Origin: Lujinxingia vulgaris
GTDB taxonomy: Bacteria > Myxococcota_A > Bradymonadia > Bradymonadales > Bradymonadaceae
DNA length: 35,596 bases
Direction: 5' to 3'
Assembly (NCBI GenBank): GCA_040394315.1
Contig: JBEBSM010000001.1
Coordinates: forward strand, 1 to 35,596
Shown: positions 1 to 35,596 of the stretch, piece by piece
Position numbering within the stretch: the first letter of the stretch is position 1
Layout: the number at the start of each line of letters is the position of its first letter
The notes under the pieces: generated by a model
What the model saw: the letters and a program-made list of their open reading frames with translations, nothing else
Database searches by the model: none
Told to the model about the DNA's origin: nothing
Program-made: the position numbers and the translations under genes

Positions 1-3000
1 ACGCTTGGTGGCACGAAGTATAAAGTGACGCTTTTGAGCGGGCTGCGTGATCGATTCGGGCAGACGCTGGGCAAAGATATTGAGCTTGATTTTGCGGTAG
101 GTCATGCGGAGCCGTTTTTGGGGGCCGGTGACAAGTCGTTGGTTGTGATCGATCCGGCGGGTAAGCCGACGTATTCGATTTATTCGGTTAATCAAAAAGA
201 GGTTCGCGTTCGGGGTTACAGGGTAACGACTGCGGATTGGTTGGCGTTTGTGCAAGCGAGCGCATGGCATAACAAGGCGTCGATGCCGGGTAAGCAGGTC
301 ATTGATCTGGTTGTAAAGCCAGCGGGTGAGGCGGATCGGTTGACGGAAACGGCGATTGATTTGTCGCCGGCTCTGGATAAAAGCGGTCTGGGTCATGTGA
401 TTTTGGAGATTGAGCCTGTTGAGGAAGATTCGACGAGTCAGTCGCACCGTCGATACAATCGCTGGCCGATGAAAGTGTGGGTTCAGTCGACGAAAATCGG
501 GTTGGATGCGTATCTCGATCCGAGCGGTTTGCGTGCGTGGGCCAGCGAGTTGGAGAGTGGGAAGCCGCTGTCCGGTGTCAGTATTAAAATGGGTGAAACG
601 GCCGCGGTTGCAGCGACGGAAAAGAGCGGTCTGGCAAGTTTTGATGTGAAGAAAGTGAGTGCCGCGCAGGGATATCTGGTGGCCAGTAAGGGCGCCGATA
701 GCGTGTTGTTGCCGGGCAATGAATATGGTTATGGCAATCACGTATCGCCCTGGTATGTGCCGCAAACGGAAGACCATTTACGCTGGTATGTGGTCGATGA
801 TCGGCAGATGTATAAGCCTGGTGAGTCGGTTCGGATCAAGGGTTGGACGCGGTTGATCGAAGGCGGAACGACAGGTGATGTCGGGCTGGCTTCGGGTGCT
901 AAAACGGTTCGTTATGAAGTCATGGAATCGCGTGGCACGAAGTTCGCTGAAGGCAGTGCGCAGGTATCGAAAACGGGCGGGTTTGATTTCAAGTTTGAGA
1001 TTCCTGACGGTGTTAATCTGGGGCATGCGTACGTGAGATTTCAGCTCGAGCCGTCCAGTGTGGTGGGTTCTGATCATCATCATAGTTTTCAGATTCAGGA
1101 GTTTCGCCGGCCGGAGTTTGCGGTTTCGGCAAGCGTTGAGGACGGGCCGCATTTGCTGGGTGAGGATGTTCGGGTTGTTGTGAACGCGGCGTATTATGCG
1201 GGTGGCGCGCTCAGTGAAGCACCAGTGAATTGGATGATTACTTCGCGTGAGGGCAGTTACTCGCCTCCCAATCGTGGCAAGTACGTGTTTGGGAAGTGGC
1301 AGCCATGGTGGGGATTTCGGCACTCTGTGTTTCATGGTTGGGACTCTGGCGATTCGCAGACGATTCAGTATTCGAATAAGACGGATATGGCGGGTGAGGA
1401 CTCGGTATTGATGGGGTTTCGCTCGCTTTCGCAGCCACTTCCGTTGAGTGTGGATATTGTTGCGGGTGTGCAGGATGTGAATCGTCAGACGTGGGAAGCG
1501 AAGACGTCGATGTTGGTTCATGCGGCGGCGGCGTATGTGGGTTTGCGCTCGGATAAGATGTTTGTGGAGCGCGGCAAACCGATTGAGATGCAGGCAATTG
1601 CTACGGATATTGATGGGAAATTGTTGGAGGGCCGCTCGATTGAGATGGTTTCGCATCGCCTGAAGTGGAAGCAGACCCGTGGCGAGTGGGCGGAAGAGGC
1701 GGTTGATGAACAGCGCTGTGAGGTGGAGTCGAAGGCGGAAGAAGTGCTGTGTAAATTTGAGACAAAGGAAGGTGGGACGTACAGGATTCGGGCGACGGTT
1801 GAGGATTCAAACGGTCGAAAAAACCTGACGGAACTTACGCGTTGGGTTTCGGGCGGCGAGCAAAAACCGGTGCGTGGGGTAGAGCTTGAGGAAGTTGTAT
1901 TGATCGCGGATAAGCAAGAATATGCGATTGATGAAGTGGCTGAGATTTTGGTTCAGTCGCCGTTTTATCCGGCCGAGGGTTTTGTGACTTATGGTCGTGA
2001 GGGGATTTTGAAGCAAGAGCGCATCGTGATCGAGAAGCCTGGTTATGTGCTGAAGGTTTCGATGCTTGCAGGTTATTTGCCGAATTTGCATGTGCAGGTG
2101 GATTTGAACGGGCAGGCGGGGCGCGTGGATGCGTCGGGCAAGGTTAGTGAAAAGTTGAAAAAGCGGGTCGCTTTTGCGTCGGGTGCTGTGAATTTGTCGA
2201 TGTCGAAATCGACGCGTACGCTGGCGGTTGAGGTGAAGCCGGGTCAGCCGGCGTCGGCTCCGGGAAGTATGGCGGAGGTCGATGTGGTCGTGCGCGATTA
2301 TGCGGGCAAGGCCGTGGCGGACAGTGAATTGCTGGTGTTTGTGGTCGATGAGGCAGTGCTTGCATTGTCGGGCTACAAGTTGGCGGATCCGATCGAGTTG
2401 TTTTACCAGGATCGGGGGATGTTGGTGAACACGTATCGAAATCGTGGATACGTGTTGTTGAGTGATCCGGATTCGATTGGTCAGGAGGGGGAAACGCCTT
2501 CGGAATCGGAAGAAGTGATGATGAAGGACAGCCTGGGTAGTTCCAGGGGTGGCGGGGGGATGCCGCCCGAGGCACCGTCGCCGATGATGGCGAAGTCTGC
2601 GCCGATGATGGAGAATAAGAAGTCGGGTGCGGATCAGGGTGGTGCCGACGGCGCGATTGCGATGCGTGAGAATTTTGATGCGCTGGCGGCTTTTGAGCCG
2701 ACGATTCGGACGGATAAGGAAGGGCGAGCGAAAATTCAGTTCAAATTGCCGGATAACCTGACGCGTTATCGGGTGATGGCGGTGGCTTTTTCGGGCAAGC
2801 ATGATTTTGGCACGGACGAGTCGTCGATGGTTGTGCGTTTGCCGTTGATGGTTCGTGCGTCGGCGCCAAGGTTCTTGAACTTTGGGGATGTGTTTGAGCT
2901 TCCTGTGGTGGTTCAAAACCAGACGGATAAGGCGATGGAGGTTGAGGTCGCGGTTCGTGGCACGAACGTTACGTTTTTGGAGACGCCGGGTGCGAAGGTT

Positions 3001-4806
3001 ACGGTTGCGGCCAATGACCGGGTTGAAGTTCGGTTTAAGGCAAGGACTGAAAGTGCGGGAATTGCGCGTTTTCAGGTCGGCGTGAGTTCGGGTCTGTTGG
3101 CGGATGCGACGATGTTTGAGTTGCCTGTTTATACGCCGGCGACGACGGAAGCGTTTGCGACGTATGGTGAAATCGACAAATCGAGCACGATTGTGCAGCC
3201 GGTTGCGATGCCAGGCGGTGTGTTTGAGCAGTTTGGCGGGCTTGAGTTGACGACGTCATCGACCGAATTGCAGGCGCTGACGGACGCGTTTATTTCGCTG
3301 CTTAATTATCCGTTTATGTTCGCGGAGCAGATTGCGTCGCGGATGCTGGCGATTGCAGCGTTGCGTGATGTTTTGACGGCGTTTGAGGCGGAAGGTATGC
3401 CGACGGCGGCTGAAATTGCGGTGTCGATGGCAGAAGATCTGGAGCTTTTACAGCGATTGCAAAACTCGGATGGCGGGTTTGGATTCTGGAGTTATGGAGA
3501 AAAATCGTATCCGTTTGTGAGTATTCATGTGTCGCATGGTTTGCGGCGCGCTCAGAAGATGGGCTACGAGATTCCGGCGTCGTTGATGACGCGCTCGGAG
3601 CAGTATCTGGTCAATATTGAGGCGAATATTCCGACGTTTTATGGTCCACGGGCAAAATATGCACTGATGGCTTATGCGCAGTATGTGCGTGCGGTTGGTG
3701 GAAAGCCGGATCTGGCTGGGACGCGTGCGTTGTATGCGAAGGCTGGCTTGAAAGAGCTGACGCTTGAGGCGCAGGGCTGGATATTGGCGGTTCTGGCTAC
3801 GGATCCTGAGTTTGCTGCGGGTCGTGCGGAGATCTTGAAGAGTTTGAATAATCGGGTTGAGGAAACGGCTGCGACGGCTGAGTTTAGAAGCGATTACGGT
3901 GATTCGGGCTGGTATATGCTTTATACATCGCGGCGCTCGGATGGTGTTTTGTTGGATGCCTTGATCGCGGCCAATCCGAAGAGCGATTTGATTCCGAAAC
4001 TTGTGCGCGGATTGCTTGGTCACCGCTCAAAGGGGCAGTGGGGATCGACGCAGGATAACGTGTTTGTTCTGTTGGCGCTGGAGCATTATTTCCGGGTTTA
4101 TGAGAAGGAAGTGCCGAATTTTGTGGCGCGCGCGTGGCTTGGGAAGCAGTTTGTCGGCGAGCATGGGTTTAAGGGTCGGACGACCGAGCGTTTTCACGTG
4201 GATGTGCCGATGGCGTATCTTGCGGAGCAGGATGGTAAAACCGATTTCGCGATTCAAAAAGATGGTAAGGGTCGCATGTATTATCGTCTGGGAATGCGTT
4301 ATGCGCCGAAGAGCTTGATGCTCAAGCCTGCGGATCATGGGTTTGCGGTCGAGCGCTTGTATGAATCGGTGGATGATGCGGGCGATGTGAAGCGGCGCGA
4401 GGATGGCGTTTGGGAAGTGAAAGCCGGTGCTCGCGTGAAGGTTACGTTGACGATGGCAGCGCCTGCGCGTCGTTATCATGTAGCGCTTGTGGATTATTTG
4501 CCGGCCGGGTTTGAGCCGTTGAATTCGGCGCTTGCGACGACTACATTGCCGGCGGATGCAGGCTCTTCGAGTGGTTCGCGGCCAGGATATTGGTGGTGGA
4601 TGGGCACGTGGTACGAGCATCAAAATATGCGTGATGAGCGTGTCGAAGCGTTTTCGTCACTGGTGTGGGGCGGCGTTCAGACCTATACCTATTTTGCGCG
4701 TGCGACGACGCCGGGTGAGTTTATCGCGCCGCCGGCCAAGGCCGAGGAGATGTATCATCCGGAGACCTTTGGTCGGACATCAAGTGAAAAGGTTGTTGTT
4801 AAATAA
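1..4806 (+). CDS. Alpha-2-macroglobulin family protein (YfaS/MagD-like, no thioester), 5' end outside window
   Basis: Frame 1 is open from base 1, with no stop before the GTG at 25, so the N-terminus is cut by the window edge. The product is over 1590 aa with repeated beta-sandwich-like segments and a G/P/M/S-rich bait-like stretch (SSRGGGGMPPEAPSPMMAKSAPMM). The helical TED-like part carries NYPFMFAEQ (nt 3307-3330) where thioester A2Ms have YPYGCxEQ. Confidence 0.88.
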   Translation, partial: TLGGTKYKVTLLSGLRDRFGQTLGKDIELDFAVGHAEPFLGAGDKSLVVIDPAGKPTYSIYSVNQKEVRVRGYRVTTADWLAFVQASAWHNKASMPGKQVIDLVVKPAGEADRLTETAIDLSPALDKSGLGHVILEIEPVEEDSTSQSHRRYNRWPMKVWVQSTKIGLDAYLDPSGLRAWASELESGKPLSGVSIKMGETAAVAATEKSGLASFDVKKVSAAQGYLVASKGADSVLLPGNEYGYGNHVSPWYVPQTEDHLRWYVVDDRQMYKPGESVRIKGWTRLIEGGTTGDVGLASGAKTVRYEVMESRGTKFAEGSAQVSKTGGFDFKFEIPDGVNLGHAYVRFQLEPSSVVGSDHHHSFQIQEFRRPEFAVSASVEDGPHLLGEDVRVVVNAAYYAGGALSEAPVNWMITSREGSYSPPNRGKYVFGKWQPWWGFRHSVFHGWDSGDSQTIQYSNKTDMAGEDSVLMGFRSLSQPLPLSVDIVAGVQDVNRQTWEAKTSMLVHAAAAYVGLRSDKMFVERGKPIEMQAIATDIDGKLLEGRSIEMVSHRLKWKQTRGEWAEEAVDEQRCEVESKAEEVLCKFETKEGGTYRIRATVEDSNGRKNLTELTRWVSGGEQKPVRGVELEEVVLIADKQEYAIDEVAEILVQSPFYPAEGFVTYGREGILKQERIVIEKPGYVLKVSMLAGYLPNLHVQVDLNGQAGRVDASGKVSEKLKKRVAFASGAVNLSMSKSTRTLAVEVKPGQPASAPGSMAEVDVVVRDYAGKAVADSELLVFVVDEAVLALSGYKLADPIELFYQDRGMLVNTYRNRGYVLLSDPDSIGQEGETPSESEEVMMKDSLGSSRGGGGMPPEAPSPMMAKSAPMMENKKSGADQGGADGAIAMRENFDALAAFEPTIRTDKEGRAKIQFKLPDNLTRYRVMAVAFSGKHDFGTDESSMVVRLPLMVRASAPRFLNFGDVFELPVVVQNQTDKAMEVEVAVRGTNVTFLETPGAKVTVAANDRVEVRFKARTESAGIARFQVGVSSGLLADATMFELPVYTPATTEAFATYGEIDKSSTIVQPVAMPGGVFEQFGGLELTTSSTELQALTDAFISLLNYPFMFAEQIASRMLAIAALRDVLTAFEAEGMPTAAEIAVSMAEDLELLQRLQNSDGGFGFWSYGEKSYPFVSIHVSHGLRRAQKMGYEIPASLMTRSEQYLVNIEANIPTFYGPRAKYALMAYAQYVRAVGGKPDLAGTRALYAKAGLKELTLEAQGWILAVLATDPEFAAGRAEILKSLNNRVEETAATAEFRSDYGDSGWYMLYTSRRSDGVLLDALIAANPKSDLIPKLVRGLLGHRSKGQWGSTQDNVFVLLALEHYFRVYEKEVPNFVARAWLGKQFVGEHGFKGRTTERFHVDVPMAYLAEQDGKTDFAIQKDGKGRMYYRLGMRYAPKSLMLKPADHGFAVERLYESVDDAGDVKRREDGVWEVKAGARVKVTLTMAAPARRYHVALVDYLPAGFEPLNSALATTTLPADAGSSSGSRPGYWWWMGTWYEHQNMRDERVEAFSSLVWGGVQTYTYFARATTPGEFIAPPAKAEEMYHPETFGRTSSEKVVVK

Positions 4807-29749: not shown

Positions 29750-29832
29750 GGAGGAGTGGCCGAGCGGTTGAAGGCACCGGTCTTGAAAACCGGCAAGCGA
29801 GAGCTTCGTGGGTTCGAATCCCACCTCCTCCG
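29750..29832 (+). tRNA. tRNA-Ser (anticodon TGA)
   Basis: Acceptor GGAGGAG/CTCCTCC, D-arm TGGCCGAGCGG, anticodon loop CTTGAAA, long variable arm, T-arm GTGGGTTCGAATCCCAC, discriminator G. No encoded CCA. Confidence 0.93.
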
Positions 29833-29901
29833 TTCCGCAAGTGCGGAGGGACGTAAGACGGTCGAGTTTGGCCGGTGTTTGTAATAACGCGAAAGCGTGT
29901 T

Positions 29902-29988
29902 GGAGAGATGGCCGAGTGGCTGAAGGCGCTCCCCTGCTAAGGGAGTATACGTGTAAACGTATCGAGGGTTCGAATCCCTCTCTCTCCG
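29902..29988 (+). tRNA. tRNA-Ser (anticodon GCT)
   Basis: Acceptor GGAGAGA/TCTCTCC, anticodon stem CTCCC/GGGAG with loop CTGCTAA, long variable arm, T-arm GAGGGTTCGAATCCCTC. Confidence 0.93.
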
Positions 29989-30036
29989 CTGAAATATCGT
30001 TCGCAGTTCTCGAAAGAGGGTGTGGACGAAGCGGTT

Positions 30037-30110
30037 GCACTTGTAGCTCAATTGGATAGAGCAATGGTCTACGGAACCATAGGTTGGAGGTTCGAACCCT
30101 TCCAGGTGCA
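30037..30110 (+). tRNA. tRNA-Arg (anticodon ACG), copy 1
   Basis: Acceptor GCACTTG/CAGGTGC, D-arm TAGCTCAATTGGATAGAGC, anticodon stem ATGGT/ACCAT with loop CTACGGA, T-loop TTCGAAC. Confidence 0.93.
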
Positions 30111-30113
30111 CTT

Positions 30114-30146
30114 GAAACACCCTTTGTTTAAGGGTGTTTCTTTTTT
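30114..30146 (+). terminator. Intrinsic terminator after tRNA-Arg copy 1
   Basis: GAAACACCC-9 nt loop-GGGTGTTTC followed by TTTTTT. Confidence 0.75.
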
Positions 30147-30204
30147 AAGCCCGCACGAGTTGTCAGTATTTGAATGAAAATTGACACACGGCAGGAAATA
30201 GAGC

Positions 30205-30233
30205 TTGACAAAACTAGCGGCACGGCCTACAAG
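30205..30233 (+). promoter_or_regulatory. Putative promoter for tRNA-Arg copy 2 (and possibly tadA)
   Basis: TTGACA (30205-30210), 17 nt spacer, TACAAG (30228-30233), about 44 nt upstream of the tRNA. Confidence 0.35.
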
Positions 30234-30277
30234 CCGTTTCGTTGTTGGCGGCTCGAAATGCAAGCAACACAAAGAAT

Positions 30278-30351
30278 GCACTTGTAGCTCAATTGGATAG
30301 AGCAATGGTCTACGGAACCATAGGTTGGAGGTTCGAACCCTTCCAGGTGCA
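30278..30351 (+). tRNA. tRNA-Arg (anticodon ACG), copy 2, identical to copy 1
   Basis: The same 74-nt sequence as 30037-30110. The flanks diverge within a few nucleotides. Confidence 0.93.
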
Positions 30352-30418
30352 CTTGAGACGGTCTTATTAACAGGCGTTTCTTTTTGAAGTACGTTGTAAC
30401 TACTGAGGCAGTACAGTC

Positions 30419-30934
30419 ATGAAAGGTGATAAAGCTTTCATGGAGCTAGCACTACAAGAAGCACGAGATGCTCAGGCATCGGGTGAAGTTCCTGTAGGTG
30501 CGGTGGTCGTTCACAAAGGCGTGGTCATTGCGACTGGTTCCAATCGCCGCGAAAGTTGGAACGACCCGACAGCCCACGCAGAATTGATAGCTGTGCGACG
30601 CGCAGCAGAACATCTGGGAAGCTGGCGGCTCGACGATTGTACGGTTTTTGTGACGCTTGAACCCTGTCCGATGTGTGCAGGGATGCTGGTCAATTCACGT
30701 GTTCCCCGCGTTGTTTTTGGAGCGCGCGATTCAAAGGCAGGTGCTTTTCGTTCGCTATATGCGATCGGAGACGATCCGCGACTGAATCATCGAATTGATA
30801 TCGTAGAAGGCTGTCTTGGTGCCGCGTGCGGAGAGATACTAACAGATTTTTTTCGTTCGATTCGTGAAGCTCAAAAGGCAAAGCGTGCGAGTGATAAAGA
30901 GCTTCCGGAATCATCGGAAGACGACGTTCTTTGA
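30419..30934 (+). CDS. tadA: tRNA-specific adenosine-34 deaminase
   Basis: The CDA-fold zinc motifs are HAELIAVRRAA and TLEPCPMCAGML, followed by RVPRVVFGARDSKAGA. This is collinear with TadA. Confidence 0.93.
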   Translation: MKGDKAFMELALQEARDAQASGEVPVGAVVVHKGVVIATGSNRRESWNDPTAHAELIAVRRAAEHLGSWRLDDCTVFVTLEPCPMCAGMLVNSRVPRVVFGARDSKAGAFRSLYAIGDDPRLNHRIDIVEGCLGAACGEILTDFFRSIREAQKAKRASDKELPESSEDDVL

Positions 30935-30963
30935 CATAGATACTCCCTGGGCGGGAAAATTAG

Positions 30964-31050
30964 GGAGGGGTGGCCGAGTGGTTGAAGGCGCTTGATTCGA
31001 AATCAAGTGTGCTTGAAAGGGTACCGTGGGTTCGAATCCCACCCCCTCCG
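30964..31050 (+). tRNA. tRNA-Ser (anticodon CGA)
   Basis: Acceptor GGAGGGG/CCCCTCC, anticodon stem CTTGA/TCAAG with loop TTCGAAA, long variable arm, T-arm GTGGGTTCGAATCCCAC. Confidence 0.92.
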
Positions 31051-31088
31051 TTGTACAAAATAGGGAGTAGTATCCAGAGAACGTTTCT

Positions 31089-31176
31089 GGGGAGGTGGCC
31101 GAGTGGTTGAAGGCGCACGCTTGGAAAGCGTGTATACGTTAATCGCGTATCGAGGGTTCGAATCCCTCTCTCTCCG
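31089..31176 (+). tRNA. tRNA-Ser (anticodon GGA)
   Basis: Acceptor GGGGAGG/TCTCTCC (two G-U pairs), anticodon stem CACGC/GCGTG with loop TTGGAAA, long variable arm, T-arm GAGGGTTCGAATCCCTC. Confidence 0.9.
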
Positions 31177-31177
31177 C

Positions 31178-31205
31178 TTGACATTACACCGCAAGGTGTT
31201 AAACA
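31178..31205 (+). promoter_or_regulatory. Putative promoter for the SRP RNA gene
   Basis: TTGACA (31178-31183), 16 nt spacer, TAAACA (31200-31205), about 14 nt before the SRP RNA helix. Confidence 0.3.
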
Positions 31206-31218
31206 AGACTTGAAACAA

Positions 31219-31330
31219 AGCTCAACCCTTGAGCGGTCGGCGCGACTACTGGCCTGGCACCTCGCCAGACCCGGGAGGGAGCAGCGAACCAGGCACAGGG
31301 TGTGCGTCGACCGCTGAGGGGTTGAGTTAG
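31219..31330 (+). ncRNA. ffs: Signal recognition particle RNA (small bacterial 4.5S type)
   Basis: A single long hairpin: 31221-31239 pairs with 31308-31326 with one G-G mismatch. The apical domain IV-like sequence is CGCCAGACCCGGGAGGGAGCAGCGAACCAGGCA, compared with E. coli CCAGGUCAGGUCCGGAAGGAAGCAGCCAAGGCAG. It has a GNRA tetraloop (GGGA) and the GGAGCA motif. Its position after tadA matches the tadA-scr synteny known in Bacillus. Confidence 0.82.
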
Positions 31331-31514: not shown

Positions 31515-32891
31515 ATGCGGATATTGACCAGGTGGGCACTGACTGGGCTGTGGATGCCGGGCTTGTTGAGCATTGCATTGGTATCGGGATGTGGGGCTTC
31601 GCAGTCTGCCGATACCGAGCACGTGGTGGAACAGCAGGAACCGGTTTCGAAGCCAGTGGCGCAACAAGAAAGCGATCGTTTCTTGTTGGTGCTCGCCACA
31701 ACGCGTTTGTACCGGGAGCCGGATGAATCGGCGGCGTATTTGCAGTTGCGCAGTGTTGAACAGGAAGCGGCAGAGCGTGCTGCGCGCATCAAGATTGCGA
31801 TGGAGCGGCGTGAGCGCGATGTAAAAAACGATAAAGTATGGAATGAGCGCGAGAAAAAGCGTGCGGCGCGCGCGCGCAAACGTGCTCGAGGTAAAAAAGC
31901 GCGGGCTGCGGCGCGGACGGCAAGTAATGAGCGGCGCGAAGCCCGTCGGGCAAAACAAATTGCCCGGGACGTGGGCTATTTGCGAAAAGATGCGGAAACC
32001 TACGCGCTGCAAAGTCCGGGGACGCAGGCGATCGTTTTGAAATGGATCGCGGAACATGGCGATTGGATCGAAGTTGAAACGACTTCGACCGAGCAATCGG
32101 GTGCTCATTGCCATGGCCAGGGACATGAGGCGTTGGGACAATTCCGGATGCGGTTTTACGTGCGCCGTGATGATCTGTTGCAGACGCTTCGTGATCGCGT
32201 GACTATTGGGTTGGGCGCTGGCACGTCCATGGAATTGATACCGGGCGTGGTGTTGATGCCGGTTAGCGGTAAGAATCCGCGTTATAAAGTGCTGGTCGAC
32301 GGGTTTGAATTTGTCGTTTCGGCCGGTGATTTTGAGGTCGCGGACAGCTATCGGCCGAATAAGCCTTTTGAAATGCAGACGACCGATACGGTATTTTCTG
32401 ATGAGGCGCTGATCCACAAAAGATTGAAGCTTGATCGCAGAACTCACCTGCCGTTTAATCCTTATTATCGCTTGTATGTGCTGGAAACATCGCGAGCGAG
32501 AAGTACCGTGTATGCAACGACGCAAACGCCGTGTGCGCGGTATGTCGTGAAGGTGCAGAATAAATATCTGACGGCAGCGCCGCCCAATGCGATGCAATTC
32601 GATTTGCGCAGATCGCACGGTCCTCCGGCGAAACCGTATGTGGAGGCCGGTACGGAAGTTTTCTCTCCGGACGGCAAGCTACTGGGTGAAGCCTACGTGG
32701 ATGCTCATCTGGGGGTGCCGATTCGGAGTGTTCAAAATGTCGGTCGCCTGGATGAAAACACGGTTGAACAAACATGTTTTCGTAAAACATTCGGCCTGCG
32801 CCACAAAATCGAGGACGAGCTTACTCGTCAGAATCTGGATTTGTGCGTAAAGCTGGATGATGTGGTAAGACATGAGTTAGAGGTATTTTGA
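31515..32891 (+). CDS. Hypothetical lipoprotein with a highly charged K/R/E-rich segment
   Basis: Lipobox ALVSGC. Residues about 90-165 are ERAARIKIAMERRERDVKNDKVWNEREKKRAARARKRARGKKARAAARTASNERREARRAKQIARD. The C-terminal ~290 aa are globular-looking and unrecognised. Confidence 0.65.
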   Translation: MRILTRWALTGLWMPGLLSIALVSGCGASQSADTEHVVEQQEPVSKPVAQQESDRFLLVLATTRLYREPDESAAYLQLRSVEQEAAERAARIKIAMERRERDVKNDKVWNEREKKRAARARKRARGKKARAAARTASNERREARRAKQIARDVGYLRKDAETYALQSPGTQAIVLKWIAEHGDWIEVETTSTEQSGAHCHGQGHEALGQFRMRFYVRRDDLLQTLRDRVTIGLGAGTSMELIPGVVLMPVSGKNPRYKVLVDGFEFVVSAGDFEVADSYRPNKPFEMQTTDTVFSDEALIHKRLKLDRRTHLPFNPYYRLYVLETSRARSTVYATTQTPCARYVVKVQNKYLTAAPPNAMQFDLRRSHGPPAKPYVEAGTEVFSPDGKLLGEAYVDAHLGVPIRSVQNVGRLDENTVEQTCFRKTFGLRHKIEDELTRQNLDLCVKLDDVVRHELEVF

Positions 32892-32965: not shown

Positions 32966-33466
32966 ATGAAAGCTAAAAGTATTTCGGAAGCGATGCGTCC
33001 TTTGTGGTTGATTGTTCTGGCGCTGGTATTGGTGACGGCTGTGGCGTGCGGCGATGAAGAACCCGACAAACCAGCAGACAATAATCAACAGGATGCGGGG
33101 ACGAAGGTCGATGTGGATGAGGAAGAAGCTCCTCTTGCGCTGATCGGGATCTGGGGCACGGTTGATAATAACTCCGAGATCATTACCAAAGATAAGTGGG
33201 ACACGATGTCGATCATTGAGTTCAACAATGAAGAGCGCTGGTTGATTACCCAGAACCCACCGGGCGATCTGGGTGCGGATAAGTACAATAAAATTTTGTG
33301 GACGCCGATTGTTCGTCAGCAGTTCTATTATTGCATGATCGAAATCGGTCGAAATAAGCTGGAAGAAGTCAAAGAAAGCCAGGTAAAGGCTGATGATAGC
33401 GATCCAACCAAGGGTGGTTGTCCTGCCGGTTCGATTCAGACCTGGTCATTGTTAACGCGCAAGTAA
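32966..33466 (+). CDS. Small acidic-linker lipoprotein, paralog of 33852-34430
   Basis: GGAGAG Shine-Dalgarno. Signal peptide ending TAVAC-GDEE, then an acidic linker. The conserved C-terminal module reads KILWTPIV..FYYC...LEE...DP..GGC......LLTRK. Confidence 0.72.
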   Translation: MKAKSISEAMRPLWLIVLALVLVTAVACGDEEPDKPADNNQQDAGTKVDVDEEEAPLALIGIWGTVDNNSEIITKDKWDTMSIIEFNNEERWLITQNPPGDLGADKYNKILWTPIVRQQFYYCMIEIGRNKLEEVKESQVKADDSDPTKGGCPAGSIQTWSLLTRK

Positions 33467-33513: not shown

Positions 33514-33542
33514 TTGACCTGTTTTTGAATCGGTGCTACTGC
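33514..33542 (+). promoter_or_regulatory. Putative promoter of the riboswitch-led operon
   Basis: TTGACC (33514-33519), 17 nt spacer, TACTGC (33537-33542). The -10 element is weak. Confidence 0.3.
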
Positions 33543-33544
33543 CC

Positions 33545-33700
33545 AGCGCGTGAACGACGGAGCAGAAAGTCGGTACGAGTCCGACGCTGCCCCCGCAACT
33601 GTAATCGGTGATGAATCTGATGCAAACCACTGGCGAAATTTGGCCGGGAAGGAATCAGATGAAGATGACCCGATAGCCAGGATATTGCTTCGTCGTGGAT
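33545..33700 (+). promoter_or_regulatory. Cobalamin (B12) riboswitch-like aptamer
   Basis: Conserved blocks appear in the expected order: GGTACGAGTCCGAC (33572-33585), GCTGCCCCCGCAACTGTAA (33586-33604), CCACTGG (33627-33633) closing a 5-bp hairpin onto CCGGGAAGG (33644-33652), GATGACC (33664-33670), and the B12-box-like AGCCAGGA (33675-33682). Confidence 0.78.
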
Positions 33701-33712
33701 TGAACACCATTG

Positions 33713-33758
33713 CTTCGGGTCGGAGGCAAGTGGGGTTGTTGGCCGGCTGAAGTTTTTT
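33713..33758 (+). terminator. Candidate riboswitch attenuator hairpin with U-tract
   Basis: CTTCGG (33713-33718) pairs with CTGAAG (33747-33752) and CGG (33721-33723) with CCG (33743-33745), followed by TTTTTT (33753-33758). ACCCGA (33668-33673), inside the aptamer 3' part, can alternatively pair with TCGGGT (33715-33720). Confidence 0.45.
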
Positions 33759-33851
33759 GAATGATTGTGTATTCATAAAAGGTAGCCGCCTTTCCTCCCT
33801 GCAGTTATCTCCGATCTGGTTCTTATCAACCTCCCCAGACGGAGTTTTTTT

Positions 33852-34430
33852 ATGCGCTTTACCTTTGAAAACATTGTGGGTCGTCGTTTTCTTCTTGTTT
33901 TGATGACGGCGTTGCTGGCTCTTGGCATGGTTGCGTGTGGCGACGATGATGGCAAGGATTCCAACAACGACAAGACTGATGTTGGCCAGGTCCAGGAAGA
34001 CGCCGGGCAGGACACGGGTGTCAAAACCGACGCGGCTGATGAAGTCGATGCTGCGGACGAGCAAGATACCGAGGACGAAACCGATGCTGCTGACGTTCCA
34101 GAAGAGCTGGAAGTTCTGGGAAGCTGGTCATCGCAATATGGTGACGAGGAAATCACGGCTACGCAGTGGGGCTATAGCCCGCTGGTGAAATTTGATAACG
34201 CCGAGCGCGTCGCTTACACCCGTAGTGCGGATGATGCGGAGTACAATCCGGGCAAATACGGCAAGATTGTGTGGACACCGCTCGTCGACGATTCGTTCTA
34301 TTACTGCACGGTCGAGTATGCACTGGATACGCTGGAAGAAGCCGAAAACAGCACGACGGCCTTCGATGCAACCAATCCGGATGAGTCGGGTTGCGGTGGA
34401 TTTTCGTGGACGAAGTTGACGCGTAAATGA
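33852..34430 (+). CDS. Small acidic-linker lipoprotein, riboswitch-controlled paralog
   Basis: GGAG lies 7 nt before the ATG. Signal peptide ending GMVAC-GDDD, then a long D/E/T-rich linker. The C-terminal module reads KIVWTPLV..FYYC...LEE...NPDESGCGGFSWTKLTRK. Confidence 0.75.
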   Translation: MRFTFENIVGRRFLLVLMTALLALGMVACGDDDGKDSNNDKTDVGQVQEDAGQDTGVKTDAADEVDAADEQDTEDETDAADVPEELEVLGSWSSQYGDEEITATQWGYSPLVKFDNAERVAYTRSADDAEYNPGKYGKIVWTPLVDDSFYYCTVEYALDTLEEAENSTTAFDATNPDESGCGGFSWTKLTRK

Positions 34431-35125
34431 GTCAACTGGGCCATGGAGCCAGTATGAAGAGTTTTGCGAAATATCTTGTTTTGATGGGCACGTTGTTGTT
34501 CGCGTCGGGTTGCGGTGAGGATGCTGCAAACGGACGAGAAGTCGACGAGATTGCAGATCCTTATGCCAGCGAAGTGGTGAGTTTTACGCCTGGCGAAGGT
34601 GCAGGTTTTGGTCAAGATAAGATGCCGGAAGTTGTGCTGGGCGCGCCGCAGGGCAAGGGTACAAACGCTGGATCGTTGTCGGTATTGAGCCTGGGCAAAG
34701 GCGGTGAAATTGTGCTCGGTTTTGGCGATCATGTGATTGTCGATGGGCCGGGCGCAGATTTCGTGGTCTTTGAGAATCCGTTTTGGCCCGGTGGCAAGGC
34801 AGCCGATGTGTATGCAGAGCTTGGTGAAGTTTCGGTGAGTATGGACGGCGTTGCGTGGAAGACATTTCCTTGCTCTACCGAGCCCAGCGAGCCGGGGCGT
34901 TGGCCAGGATGTGCTGGCTGGACTCCGACGCTTGTTTATGATGCGGACGATCTTGTTCCGCTCGATCCGCAATTGAGTGGCGGTGACGCGTTTGATTTGA
35001 AGGACATCGGCGTCGGCGAAATTCGTTTCGTGCGGATTCGTGATGTTTCGAATAACGGCGATACACCGAGCGCTGGTTTTGATCTGGATGCGGTTGGCGG
35101 CGTTCATTTTCGCGGCAAGAACTGA
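34427..35125 (+). CDS. Hypothetical lipoprotein, translationally coupled to the preceding gene
   Basis: ATGA start/stop overlap at 34427-34430; an alternative ATG lies at 34454. Lipobox LFASGC. Conserved-looking blocks are FTPGEGAGFGQ, GADFVVFENPF, VSVSMDG, GCAGWTP, RFVRIRD and GFDLDAV. I cannot name the family. Confidence 0.72.
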   Translation: MSQLGHGASMKSFAKYLVLMGTLLFASGCGEDAANGREVDEIADPYASEVVSFTPGEGAGFGQDKMPEVVLGAPQGKGTNAGSLSVLSLGKGGEIVLGFGDHVIVDGPGADFVVFENPFWPGGKAADVYAELGEVSVSMDGVAWKTFPCSTEPSEPGRWPGCAGWTPTLVYDADDLVPLDPQLSGGDAFDLKDIGVGEIRFVRIRDVSNNGDTPSAGFDLDAVGGVHFRGKN

Positions 35126-35305: not shown

Positions 35306-35596
35306 TTAGTAGCCGCGTTCGACCATTTCGTCACCGATTTCGTCGTCGTCAGCCGTGGCGGCGGCAAACGTGGAAATGTCGACTTTGACGTCGAGCGTGC
35401 GGTTTTTGATCTTGTCGAGGATCTCGTCTTTGACGAAGGACAGAGGATGTGTGCCGCGTTGGCCATCGGTGTAGGTGCGCAGGGCGACGGTGCCTTCTTC
35501 GGCTTCGCGGCCGCCGACGACCAGGATGTAGGGGATCTTGCGGGTAATGGCTTCGCGGGTTTTGAAGCCCATTTTCTCGCTGCGATCGTCGACTTC
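35306..35596 (-). CDS. thrS: Threonyl-tRNA synthetase, C-terminal anticodon-binding part (5' end outside window)
   Basis: The reading frame is open to the window edge. [42 protein letters not shown] matches the ThrRS C-terminal DxRxEKIGxKIRE...VPYxLVxGxxE signature. An acidic extension of about 25 aa follows. Confidence 0.88.

Follow-up and report, generated by a model that had tools for sequence, protein, structure and literature searches.

A class-I-like cobalamin riboswitch precedes two lipoprotein genes in Lujinxingia vulgaris and is probably a B12-OFF switch of translation initiation

Introduction

What lies in the 385-nucleotide (nt) gap that runs from a stop codon at 33466 to an ATG at 33852 in the genome of Lujinxingia vulgaris, and what does it have to do with the two small lipoprotein genes that follow it? 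The gap belongs to a stretch of 35,596 nucleotides (assembly GCA_040394315.1, contig JBEBSM010000001.1, positions 1 to 35,596 of the forward strand) that we call the window; all coordinates without a locus handle refer to it, and features lie on its forward (+) strand unless a minus sign is given. Related loci carry handles of the form L001. An initial annotation made from the letters had proposed that the gap holds a cobalamin-riboswitch leader and no real open reading frame (ORF), and it is indeed crossed by mechanical ORFs only.

Here we show by covariance-model match and covarying helices that the leader 5′ of the two lipoprotein genes is a genuine cobalamin riboswitch of long, class-I-like architecture. 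The reading that we favour is that this riboswitch turns expression off when B12 is bound, that it acts mainly on translation initiation, and that it controls the two lipoprotein genes as one operon; we give this reading as a whole a probability of roughly 70%. Few riboswitch classes are as common as the cobalamin riboswitches, and any pipeline built on Rfam would pick up the copy in the window. As an RNA it is one more ordinary representative of a widespread family, with nothing new for RNA biology, and what deserves attention is the company that it keeps.

Results

A cobalamin aptamer with covarying helices

The Rfam family RF00174 (Cobalamin) matches the leader at 33528-33705 (+) over the full model (1-189) with 75.9 bits (E-value 3.5e-17, gathering score 31.5), and it is the top-scoring family for the leader within clan CL00101. 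The initial annotation had named two checks of its proposal, a search with this covariance model and a look for covariation-backed helices in homologous leaders; both came out positive, the first well over the gathering score. The sequence blocks that it had listed were also all found where it had placed them, namely GGTACGAGTCCGAC (33572-85), GCTGCCCCCGCAACTGTAA (33586-33604), CCACTGG and CCGGGAAGG with their 5-bp hairpin CUGGC/GCCGG (33630-34/33643-47), GATGACCCG (33664-72), the B12 box block AGCCAGGA (33675-82) and the two leader copies of the 9-mer ATTGCTTCG (33684-92 and 33709-17). Read as parts of the aptamer, the core blocks stand in order from 5′ to 3′: L4 GGU..A..CC, L5 GCCCCCGC, ACUGUAA, (G)CCACUG, GGGAAGG and the B12 box.

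The aptamer itself runs from P1 to P1 at 33555..33695 (P denotes paired regions, L loops and J joining segments), which is the interval that our own covariance model, R1, matches with 145.9 bits; R1 took the place of a regular-expression screen for the L5/P6 motif, which had missed known positives. Along this interval follow the P1/P3 5′ strand (33555-65), P4/L4 (33569-85), P5/L5 (33588-97, with the L5 bases CCCC at 33591-94), the 5′ strand of P6 (33599-602), the P6 extension with ACCACUGG and CCGGGAAGG (33605-33673), the B12 box AGCCAGGAUAUUG (33675-87) and the P3/P1 3′ strand (33685-95). P1 (33555-62 / 33688-95) continues straight into P3, and the helix amounts to 11 contiguous pairs, three of them G-U wobbles.

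Related leaders were gathered via homologues of the downstream proteins, and 13 class-I-like leaders align well; a pattern scan of metagenomes for a B12 box and an L13 loop added one new leader, L094, which is similar to L029. Across the 13 leaders and over 30 pairs including P3, 95.4% of cells are paired, versus 85.3% in shuffles, and double-sided changes occur at 13 of the 30 pairs, a count that none of 500 shuffles reached. When the partner strand is slid out of place as a control, pairing falls to 30-48%. RNAalifold independently recovers P4, P5, P6 and the P6 extension, with compensatory changes at 13 of 27 pairs. P3 varies on one side only (GU/GC) in homologous leaders, and P1 covaries among close relatives, GGAG/CUUC becoming GAGG/CCUC in L102.

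Two side results of the folding and scanning work were set aside. Equilibrium folding of the whole leader, tried on antiterminator models, was dropped as a test since it fails to reproduce the aptamer fold, and a minus-strand "terminator" that a scan placed at 33585-33569 is an artefact: the scan had read the P4 hairpin and the adjoining A-rich J3/4 in reverse complement.

Promoter and divergent blocks

Upstream of P1, the motif TTGAC(N17-18)TAnnnn is found at a constant distance in 15 related leaders and is invariant in the five-way alignment of close relatives. In the window it reads as a sigma-70-type promoter (33514..33542), with a −35 element TTGACC at 33514-19, a 17-nt spacer, and TGc plus a −10 element TACTGC at 33537-42; a strict consensus promoter scan did not flag it. 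The conserved motif indicates that the riboswitch is transcribed from its own promoter, with a transcription start that would fall at about 33549. Non-canonical pairs in the P1/P2 columns of the RF00174 alignment (33528-33550) coincide with the promoter, and this segment is probably DNA outside the transcript.

The initial annotation had seen that two blocks depart from consensus and had suggested an atypical variant. The departures are real: the GGGAA block and the B12 box 3′ half correspond to the paired strands of P3 together with J3/4 and J6/3, where P3 is CAG/YUG in the subgroup of 13 related leaders versus the Rfam consensus GGG/CCY, J6/3 is GAUA in the same leaders versus GAGA, and J3/4 is AAA in the window, L001, L099 and L100 versus an otherwise invariant GAA. 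The 3′ half of the B12 box diverges (GAUAUUGC), yet it is kept in the 13 relatives and still pairs as P3. The label of an atypical architecture does not survive, because the P1/P2-column mismatches lie on the promoter and the P3 and J differences are conserved in the subgroup, which makes the architecture canonical. From their distribution among the aligned leaders, the P3 and J6/3 differences are a conserved signature of a Myxococcota subgroup, not degeneration.

The same features are what one would cite for a decaying, non-functional relic or a chance resemblance, since J3/4 has AAA instead of GAA in four leaders and the Rfam alignment contains non-canonical pairs in the P1/P2 region. We consider this scarcely credible, given a match with an E-value as low as that reported above, Rfam mismatches that sit on the promoter rather than on RNA, an actual P1 of 11 contiguous covarying pairs, and an entire leader, expression platform included, that is conserved in five relatives with compensatory changes.

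An expression platform built on P13 and an anti-Shine-Dalgarno segment

Between P1 and the next hairpin lies a linker, J1/13 (UGGAUUGAACACCA, 33696..33709), in which 13 of 14 bases are invariant in five close relatives; L102, which is otherwise diverged, has a G for U once. The hairpin at 33710..33729 has the stem UUGCUUC/GAGGCAA, which covaries, and the loop GGGUCG (33717-22); it folds at −8.8 kcal/mol and is the best-conserved element 3′ of the aptamer. The whole stretch from the linker through this hairpin to GUGGGGUUG shows two substitutions in the five-way alignment that includes L102, one in the linker and one in the 3′ strand of the hairpin. In 23 leaders the aptamer is followed by an equivalent hairpin whose loop is rich in G (GGGUCG, GGGGUG, GGCGG and others), and in these stems, which were chosen by eye and whose pairs were counted by script, 135 of 147 cells pair, with 4.95 of 5 pairs formed in cis versus 3.39 of 5 when strands are swapped between leaders. 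A MAFFT alignment of the hairpins went unused because their differing loop lengths put the 3′ strands out of register.

The loop carries a GGG complementary to the CCCC of L5, and the conservation of the two loops leaves no room for covariation. In this class, the known ligand-dependent regulatory contact is the L5-L13 kissing loop (PMC5028336), and from its position and its loop the hairpin at 33710-29 is the expected P13/L13, a candidate kissing-loop partner of L5.

At the other end of the platform stands the Shine-Dalgarno (SD) region of the first lipoprotein gene, CCAGACGGAG (33835-44, with GGAG at 33841-44), separated by a 7-nt spacer from the ATG at 33852-54, the whole spanning 33835..33854. 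Upstream of it, a segment that we call the anti-SD (AUCUCCGAUCUGG, 33807..33819) has two possible pairings, one with the SD region and one with L13 plus the 3′ strand of P13. The first of these pairings, the SD hairpin (33809-19/33835-44), is present in the minimum-free-energy fold and is conserved in all five relatives, the outer helix in L102 having been re-formed through changes in both strands. As for the second, 33807-19 is the best downstream duplex partner of 33716-29 in the window, at −17.8 kcal/mol with a shuffled control of 0.04, and it is also the best partner of the SD zone, at −16.5 kcal/mol. The corresponding duplex in L001 reaches −21.0 kcal/mol with a shuffled control of 0.00, L102 keeps the pairing by means of wobble changes, and overlapping but weaker sites occur in L017, L020 and L012, which, like L001, show the triad of SD mimic, anti-SD and SD. 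L13 together with the 3′ strand of P13 (33716-29), which reads GGGUCGGAG, thus appears to mimic the SD region, AGACGGAG. In L029 an ATG directly after P13 was rejected as the start, as L094 places the true start further downstream.

Between P13 and the anti-SD a further hairpin, H2 (33741..33790), is predicted in all five relatives in spite of sequence change. Its base helix is GGCCGGCUG / UAGCCGCC in the window, GGUCGGCUGCUU/AAGCAGCCGUC in L001, GGUCGGCUG/CGGCCGCC in L099 and L100, and AGUCGUC/GACGACU in L102, and its U-rich interior is free to vary in sequence and length.

These elements suggest how a ligand might be read out. With a corrinoid bound, L5 would kiss the G-rich L13 and lock P13 (33710-29), and the locked P13 would withdraw the SD-like segment GGGUCGGAGG. 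The anti-SD would then have no partner until the SD has been transcribed, whereupon it would close on the SD and translation would be off. In the ligand-free RNA, L13 and the 3′ strand of P13 would capture the anti-SD first, leaving the SD open. In folding predictions, locking P13 brings the accessibility of the SD down to 0.00 both in the window, where it starts at 0.09, and in L001, where it starts at 0.20.

A hairpin followed by six U residues

The initial annotation had also read an OFF-switch attenuator into the leader, on the grounds of a hairpin followed by T6. The hairpin is there: its 5′ arm (33712-23) lies inside P13, its 3′ arm at 33743-53, its inner stem at 33725-29/33736-40 with the apical loop GUGGGG (33730-35), and its U-run at 33753-58, and the structure as a whole (33712..33758) folds at −16.7 kcal/mol. 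It is mutually exclusive with P13, since the P13 5′ strand and L13 serve as its 5′ arm, and it is incompatible with H2, since its 3′ arm is the H2 5′ strand, H2 overlapping both that arm and the U-run. Its conservation among relatives is uneven. L001 retains the hairpin with a shorter stem and a U-run shifted so as to remain adjacent; in L099 and L100 the U-run has shrunk to U4 behind a 5-nt spacer; and L102 has lost the arm as well as the U-run, although P13, H2 and the SD hairpin persist. A consensus terminator scan did not flag the hairpin, and on its own it is no more stable than shuffled sequence (z-score −0.44).

On such an attenuator model, the ligand would keep ACCCGA (33668-73), the 3′ strand of P6, inside P6 and so free UCGGGU (33715-20) for the terminator at 33712-52 plus U6; without ligand, an antiterminator would form, either from ACCCGA and UCGGGU or from the P1 5′ strand pairing with the second copy of ATTGCTTCG. 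The model can point to a hairpin of real calculated stability that L001 retains, to the exact 6-nt complementarity and the 9-nt duplication, which are both genuine, to pairing of the P1/P3 5′ strand with the second copy at −11.0 kcal/mol against −16.8 kcal/mol for the first, and to family members (L048, L087 and L020) that clearly use intrinsic terminators. Against it stand the decay of the U-run in L099 and L100 and the loss of arm and U-run in L102, the fact that the conserved H2 uses the terminator 3′ arm as its own 5′ strand, the silence of the terminator scan and a stability within the range of shuffles, and a duplication of ATTGCTTCG that is restricted to the lineage of the window. The complementarity is moreover automatic, because the CCCG of L5, to which L13 (CGGG) is complementary, recurs in the P6 strand. 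The exact complementarity that the initial annotation had noticed between TCGGGT and ACCCGA stands as an observation, but TCGGGT is better read as the conserved L13 loop, which would kiss L5, than as a partner of ACCCGA. We regard transcriptional attenuation as the principal mechanism as unlikely, and in the translational reading that we prefer, the hairpin and its U6 may contribute a lineage-specific transcriptional component.

As an observation on its own, the 9-mer ATTGCTTCG occurs five times in the window (10854, 23977, 28394, 33684 and 33709), where 0.44 copies are expected and none of 100 shuffles matches that number, and three of the five copies are remote from the riboswitch.

The riboswitch travels with the lipoprotein genes

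We call the two genes behind the leader gene 1 and gene 2. A match to RF00174 precedes each of the gene-1 homologues whose context was fetched, and this match reaches the gathering score in five gene-1 lineages, L001 (82.4 bits), L012 (81.9 bits), L011 (75.2 bits), L005 (48.7 bits) and L002 (41.1 bits). The match in L008 falls just below it (31.2 bits versus 31.5), and that in L013 (20.2 bits) is interrupted by the end of the contig. Among the 80 genome loci with a gene-2 homologue, model R1 finds a riboswitch in 49, on the same strand and upstream of gene 2 in 48 of the 49; in L022 it sits between gene 2 and gene 1. Three architectures recur: riboswitch, gene 1, gene 2; riboswitch, gene 2; and riboswitch, a 421-amino-acid (aa) protein, gene 2.

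A TonB-dependent receptor, with BtuB as its top match in both NCBIfam and PDB, lies next to these genes in 20 loci, and beta-propeller proteins are found in some loci. The protein of about 421 aa, cluster A, is present in 23 riboswitch/gene-2 loci (for example L015 3678-4943, L044 2726-3991 and L034 1406-2782), where it follows gene 2, separates the riboswitch from gene 2 or follows the TonB-dependent receptor, and it has no Pfam, NCBIfam or PDB match. Our literature searches found no description of a cobalamin riboswitch with these lipoprotein genes.

In L002 (6001-11590) the riboswitch is followed by a two-domain gene-1 homologue, an SGL-type beta-propeller, and a 1162-aa fusion of B12-binding, MeaB and methylmalonyl-CoA-mutase domains (IcmF-like), so that a B12-dependent enzyme apparently lies downstream of a B12 OFF switch. 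In L022 (197-2285) the order is inverted, with gene 2, riboswitch and a two-domain gene 1, and L082 (2387-2746) has two back-to-back riboswitch matches on opposite strands, of 56.5 bits (−) and 25.2 bits (+).

Two lipoproteins of uncharacterised families

Gene 1 (33852..34430) encodes a 192-aa protein with the lipobox MVAC (Cys29), and gene 2 (34427..35125), whose start overlaps the stop of gene 1 and which is the last gene of the operon, a 232-aa protein with the lipobox ASGC (Cys29); the C-terminus of thrS (35306-35572, −) converges on the operon. Cys29 is invariant in both family alignments (gene 1 ...LALGMVAC29GDD, gene 2 ...LLFASGC29GED), and by a signal peptide that ends in a lipobox with this cysteine both products are lipoproteins.

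In gene 1 a disordered acidic linker leads to a beta-rich domain of about 105 aa with conserved Cys152, Cys181 and Trp186, which AlphaFold 2 (AF2) models with a predicted local distance difference test (pLDDT) score above 90; a Foldseek search with this model gave no significant PDB match. An exhaustive profile search puts the gene-1 family at 1363 clusters at 50% identity, and tandem arrays of 2-5 domains are frequent in it. The domain of gene 2 is a discoidin/CBM32-like jelly roll (AF2 pLDDT 89.6), and its family comprises more than 2293 clusters at 90% identity, mainly from Myxococcota, with some members named "cell surface protein". Neither product belongs to a Pfam family, gene 2 being without a Pfam match at E≤0.1, and sequence searches of Pfam, NCBIfam and PDB gave no assignable function for either gene. 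In particular, PF14717 (DUF4465, BtuJ) matches none of 83 gene-2 family members at E≤1, and a PDB profile search found no Btu protein for gene 2.

The top Foldseek match of gene 2 is chain B of 8BLW, the BtuB1-BtuG1 complex (E-value 2.5e-4, template-modelling score 0.46, root-mean-square deviation 12.8 Å), a chain that we take, from chain lengths only, to be the lipoprotein. Generic discoidin/CBM32 domains match about as well, and with a deviation of 12.8 Å a relationship to BtuH or BtuG was not accepted on this match, which we keep as a lead only.

Directly upstream of the riboswitch gap, a 166-aa paralogue of gene 1 (32966-33466, +; E-value 3e-56 to the family hidden Markov model) is itself preceded by a 458-aa lipoprotein without a family match (31515-32891, +). 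There are thus four lipoprotein genes in a row, with no riboswitch before the first two and B12 control predicted for the last two only; L001 has the same arrangement of four.

Discussion

Comparison with known systems

Set beside the class-I members of RF00174, such as E. coli btuB and the adenosylcobalamin (AdoCbl) riboswitches of T. tengcongensis and S. thermophilum, the leader in the window shares the four-way junction P3-P6, the T-loop-like L4, the C-rich L5, the B12 box AGCCAGGA, the location in a 5′ leader, a peripheral extension of P6 with (G)CCACUG and GGGAAGG, and a G-rich-loop hairpin at the position of P13/L13. It differs in P3 (CAG/YUG), J6/3 (GAUA) and J3/4 (AAA), and it lacks the optional P2 hairpin of the Rfam model. 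The most consequential difference is one of distance: in env8 and btuB, P13 directly contains the SD, whereas in the window P13 lies about 110 nt upstream of it, and any translational control must therefore be relayed via the anti-SD.

The gene content recalls the riboswitch-controlled btu operons of Bacteroides thetaiotaomicron, which encode BtuB together with the B12-binding surface lipoproteins BtuG, BtuH, BtuJ (DUF4465, a beta-jellyroll) and BtuK (PMC13616437). In both, a cobalamin riboswitch precedes small lipoproteins with tether-like linkers, and in relatives the lipoproteins are encoded together with a BtuB-like TonB-dependent receptor and in some cases a beta-propeller protein. Gene 2 resembles BtuJ in its jelly-roll fold, but it has no sequence-level link to DUF4465/BtuJ, BtuH or BtuG; unlike the Bacteroides operons, that of the window belongs to a member of the Myxococcota and contains no receptor.

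A second resemblance is to Leptospira interrogans, where LIC13354 and LIC13355 (NF047669 and NF033170) are adjacent and in the same order as genes 1 and 2 and give weak but specific profile matches. Gene 1 matches LIC13354_fam with an E-value of 2e-9 and 38 bits against a curated cut-off of 130, and gene 2 matches lipo_LIC13355 with 4.7e-13 and 49 bits against a cut-off of 120, so each is a remote relative and not a member. LIC13355 has been investigated as a lipoprotein that binds to the host (PMC11891782), and two cobalamin riboswitches have been reported in that genome, before btuB and LIC20135 (PMC3953431). The literature on LIC13354/LIC13355 that we searched reports neither a B12 link nor a riboswitch.

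Direction of the switch

The cobalamin riboswitches characterised so far are, to our knowledge, all OFF switches. Because of this, of a gene context of the uptake type, and of the layout in L048 and L087, where P13 is followed by an independent canonical terminator consistent with OFF logic, we consider the switch in the window very probably OFF-type, with greater assurance than we attach to the favoured reading as a whole.

Several observations nevertheless weigh against that reading. Besides the choice of the P13 hairpins by eye, the triad of SD mimic, anti-SD and SD is weaker or absent in L024, L025, L062 and L029 and is significant only in the lineage of the window and L001. Equilibrium folding leaves the SD closed in nearly all conditions (unpaired ≤0.2), and the ON state therefore has to be kinetic; the particular SD/anti-SD relay sketched above is proposed as a kinetic one, and we would put even money on it. 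At the gene level, 20 loci without an R1 match have no riboswitch by Rfam within 3 kb either, and Pfam and PDB searches detect no sequence relationship of the two proteins to B12 binders. Finally, the nascent platform prefers the hairpin with U6 over P13 (−16.7 versus −8.8 kcal/mol), and, read literally, a locked P13 would block termination, which is the opposite polarity to OFF.

This last point is the core of the case for a B12-ON switch, in which the kissing loop would lock P13, whose 5′ strand and loop are the 5′ arm of the terminator, so that ligand prevents termination at U6 and induces the operon. P13 and the terminator-like hairpin cannot coexist, and the segment 33696-33758 indeed cannot form the hairpin with U6 when P13/L13 is locked and does form it when left free. 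Yet locking P13 would leave the SD of a read-through transcript sequestered, L102 has not kept the terminator, induction by B12 is hard to square with genes that in relatives adjoin BtuB-like receptors, and the characterised cobalamin riboswitches are, as noted above, all of the opposite kind. We hold an ON switch to be very improbable, less probable still than attenuation, and we keep to a B12-OFF switch acting mainly on translation.

Surroundings of the operon

The nearest named relatives of the window are metagenome-assembled genomes of Bradymonadales, Lujinxingiaceae and Persicimonas, and L001 (GCA_966193675.1) is syntenic with it. The rest of the window contains no B12 genes. A cluster of six tRNA genes (29750-31321, +) includes two identical copies (30037-30110 and 30278-30351) and an ORF (30419-30934) whose L001 counterpart has a cytidine/dCMP deaminase domain; a small signal recognition particle (SRP) RNA follows the tRNA genes at 31229-31321, and the tRNA/SRP block is syntenic in L001. 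A 1593-aa bacterial alpha-2-macroglobulin is encoded at 25-4806 (+), and further along the window are an M32 carboxypeptidase, a LysM/M74 endopeptidase, a matrixin-like protease and a protein with a von Willebrand factor A domain. This protease-rich context, which has no connection with the riboswitch, fits a predatory lifestyle.

Conclusions

Most probably, the two regulated lipoproteins capture corrinoids at the outer membrane or cell surface and supply them to a BtuB-like TonB-dependent receptor whose gene lies elsewhere in the genome. More tentatively, and at somewhat less than even odds, the two lipoproteins may represent new extracellular or outer-membrane corrinoid-capture families in predatory Myxococcota, independently evolved analogues of BtuG, BtuH, BtuJ and BtuK that hand B12 to BtuB-like receptors. 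If corrinoid capture is true, the remote homology would also recast the Leptospira "adhesin" pair LIC13354/LIC13355 as nutrient-acquisition proteins.

The value of the riboswitch is thus that of a functional label, one that ties two sizeable uncharacterised lipoprotein families to vitamin B12. Bradymonadales and other Myxococcota are predators, and predatory Myxococcota may depend on scavenged cofactors. Lipoprotein-assisted B12 capture outside the Bacteroidota, if true, would widen the known machinery of corrinoid scavenging, and the gene-1 and gene-2 families would be testable candidates for new B12-binding folds.

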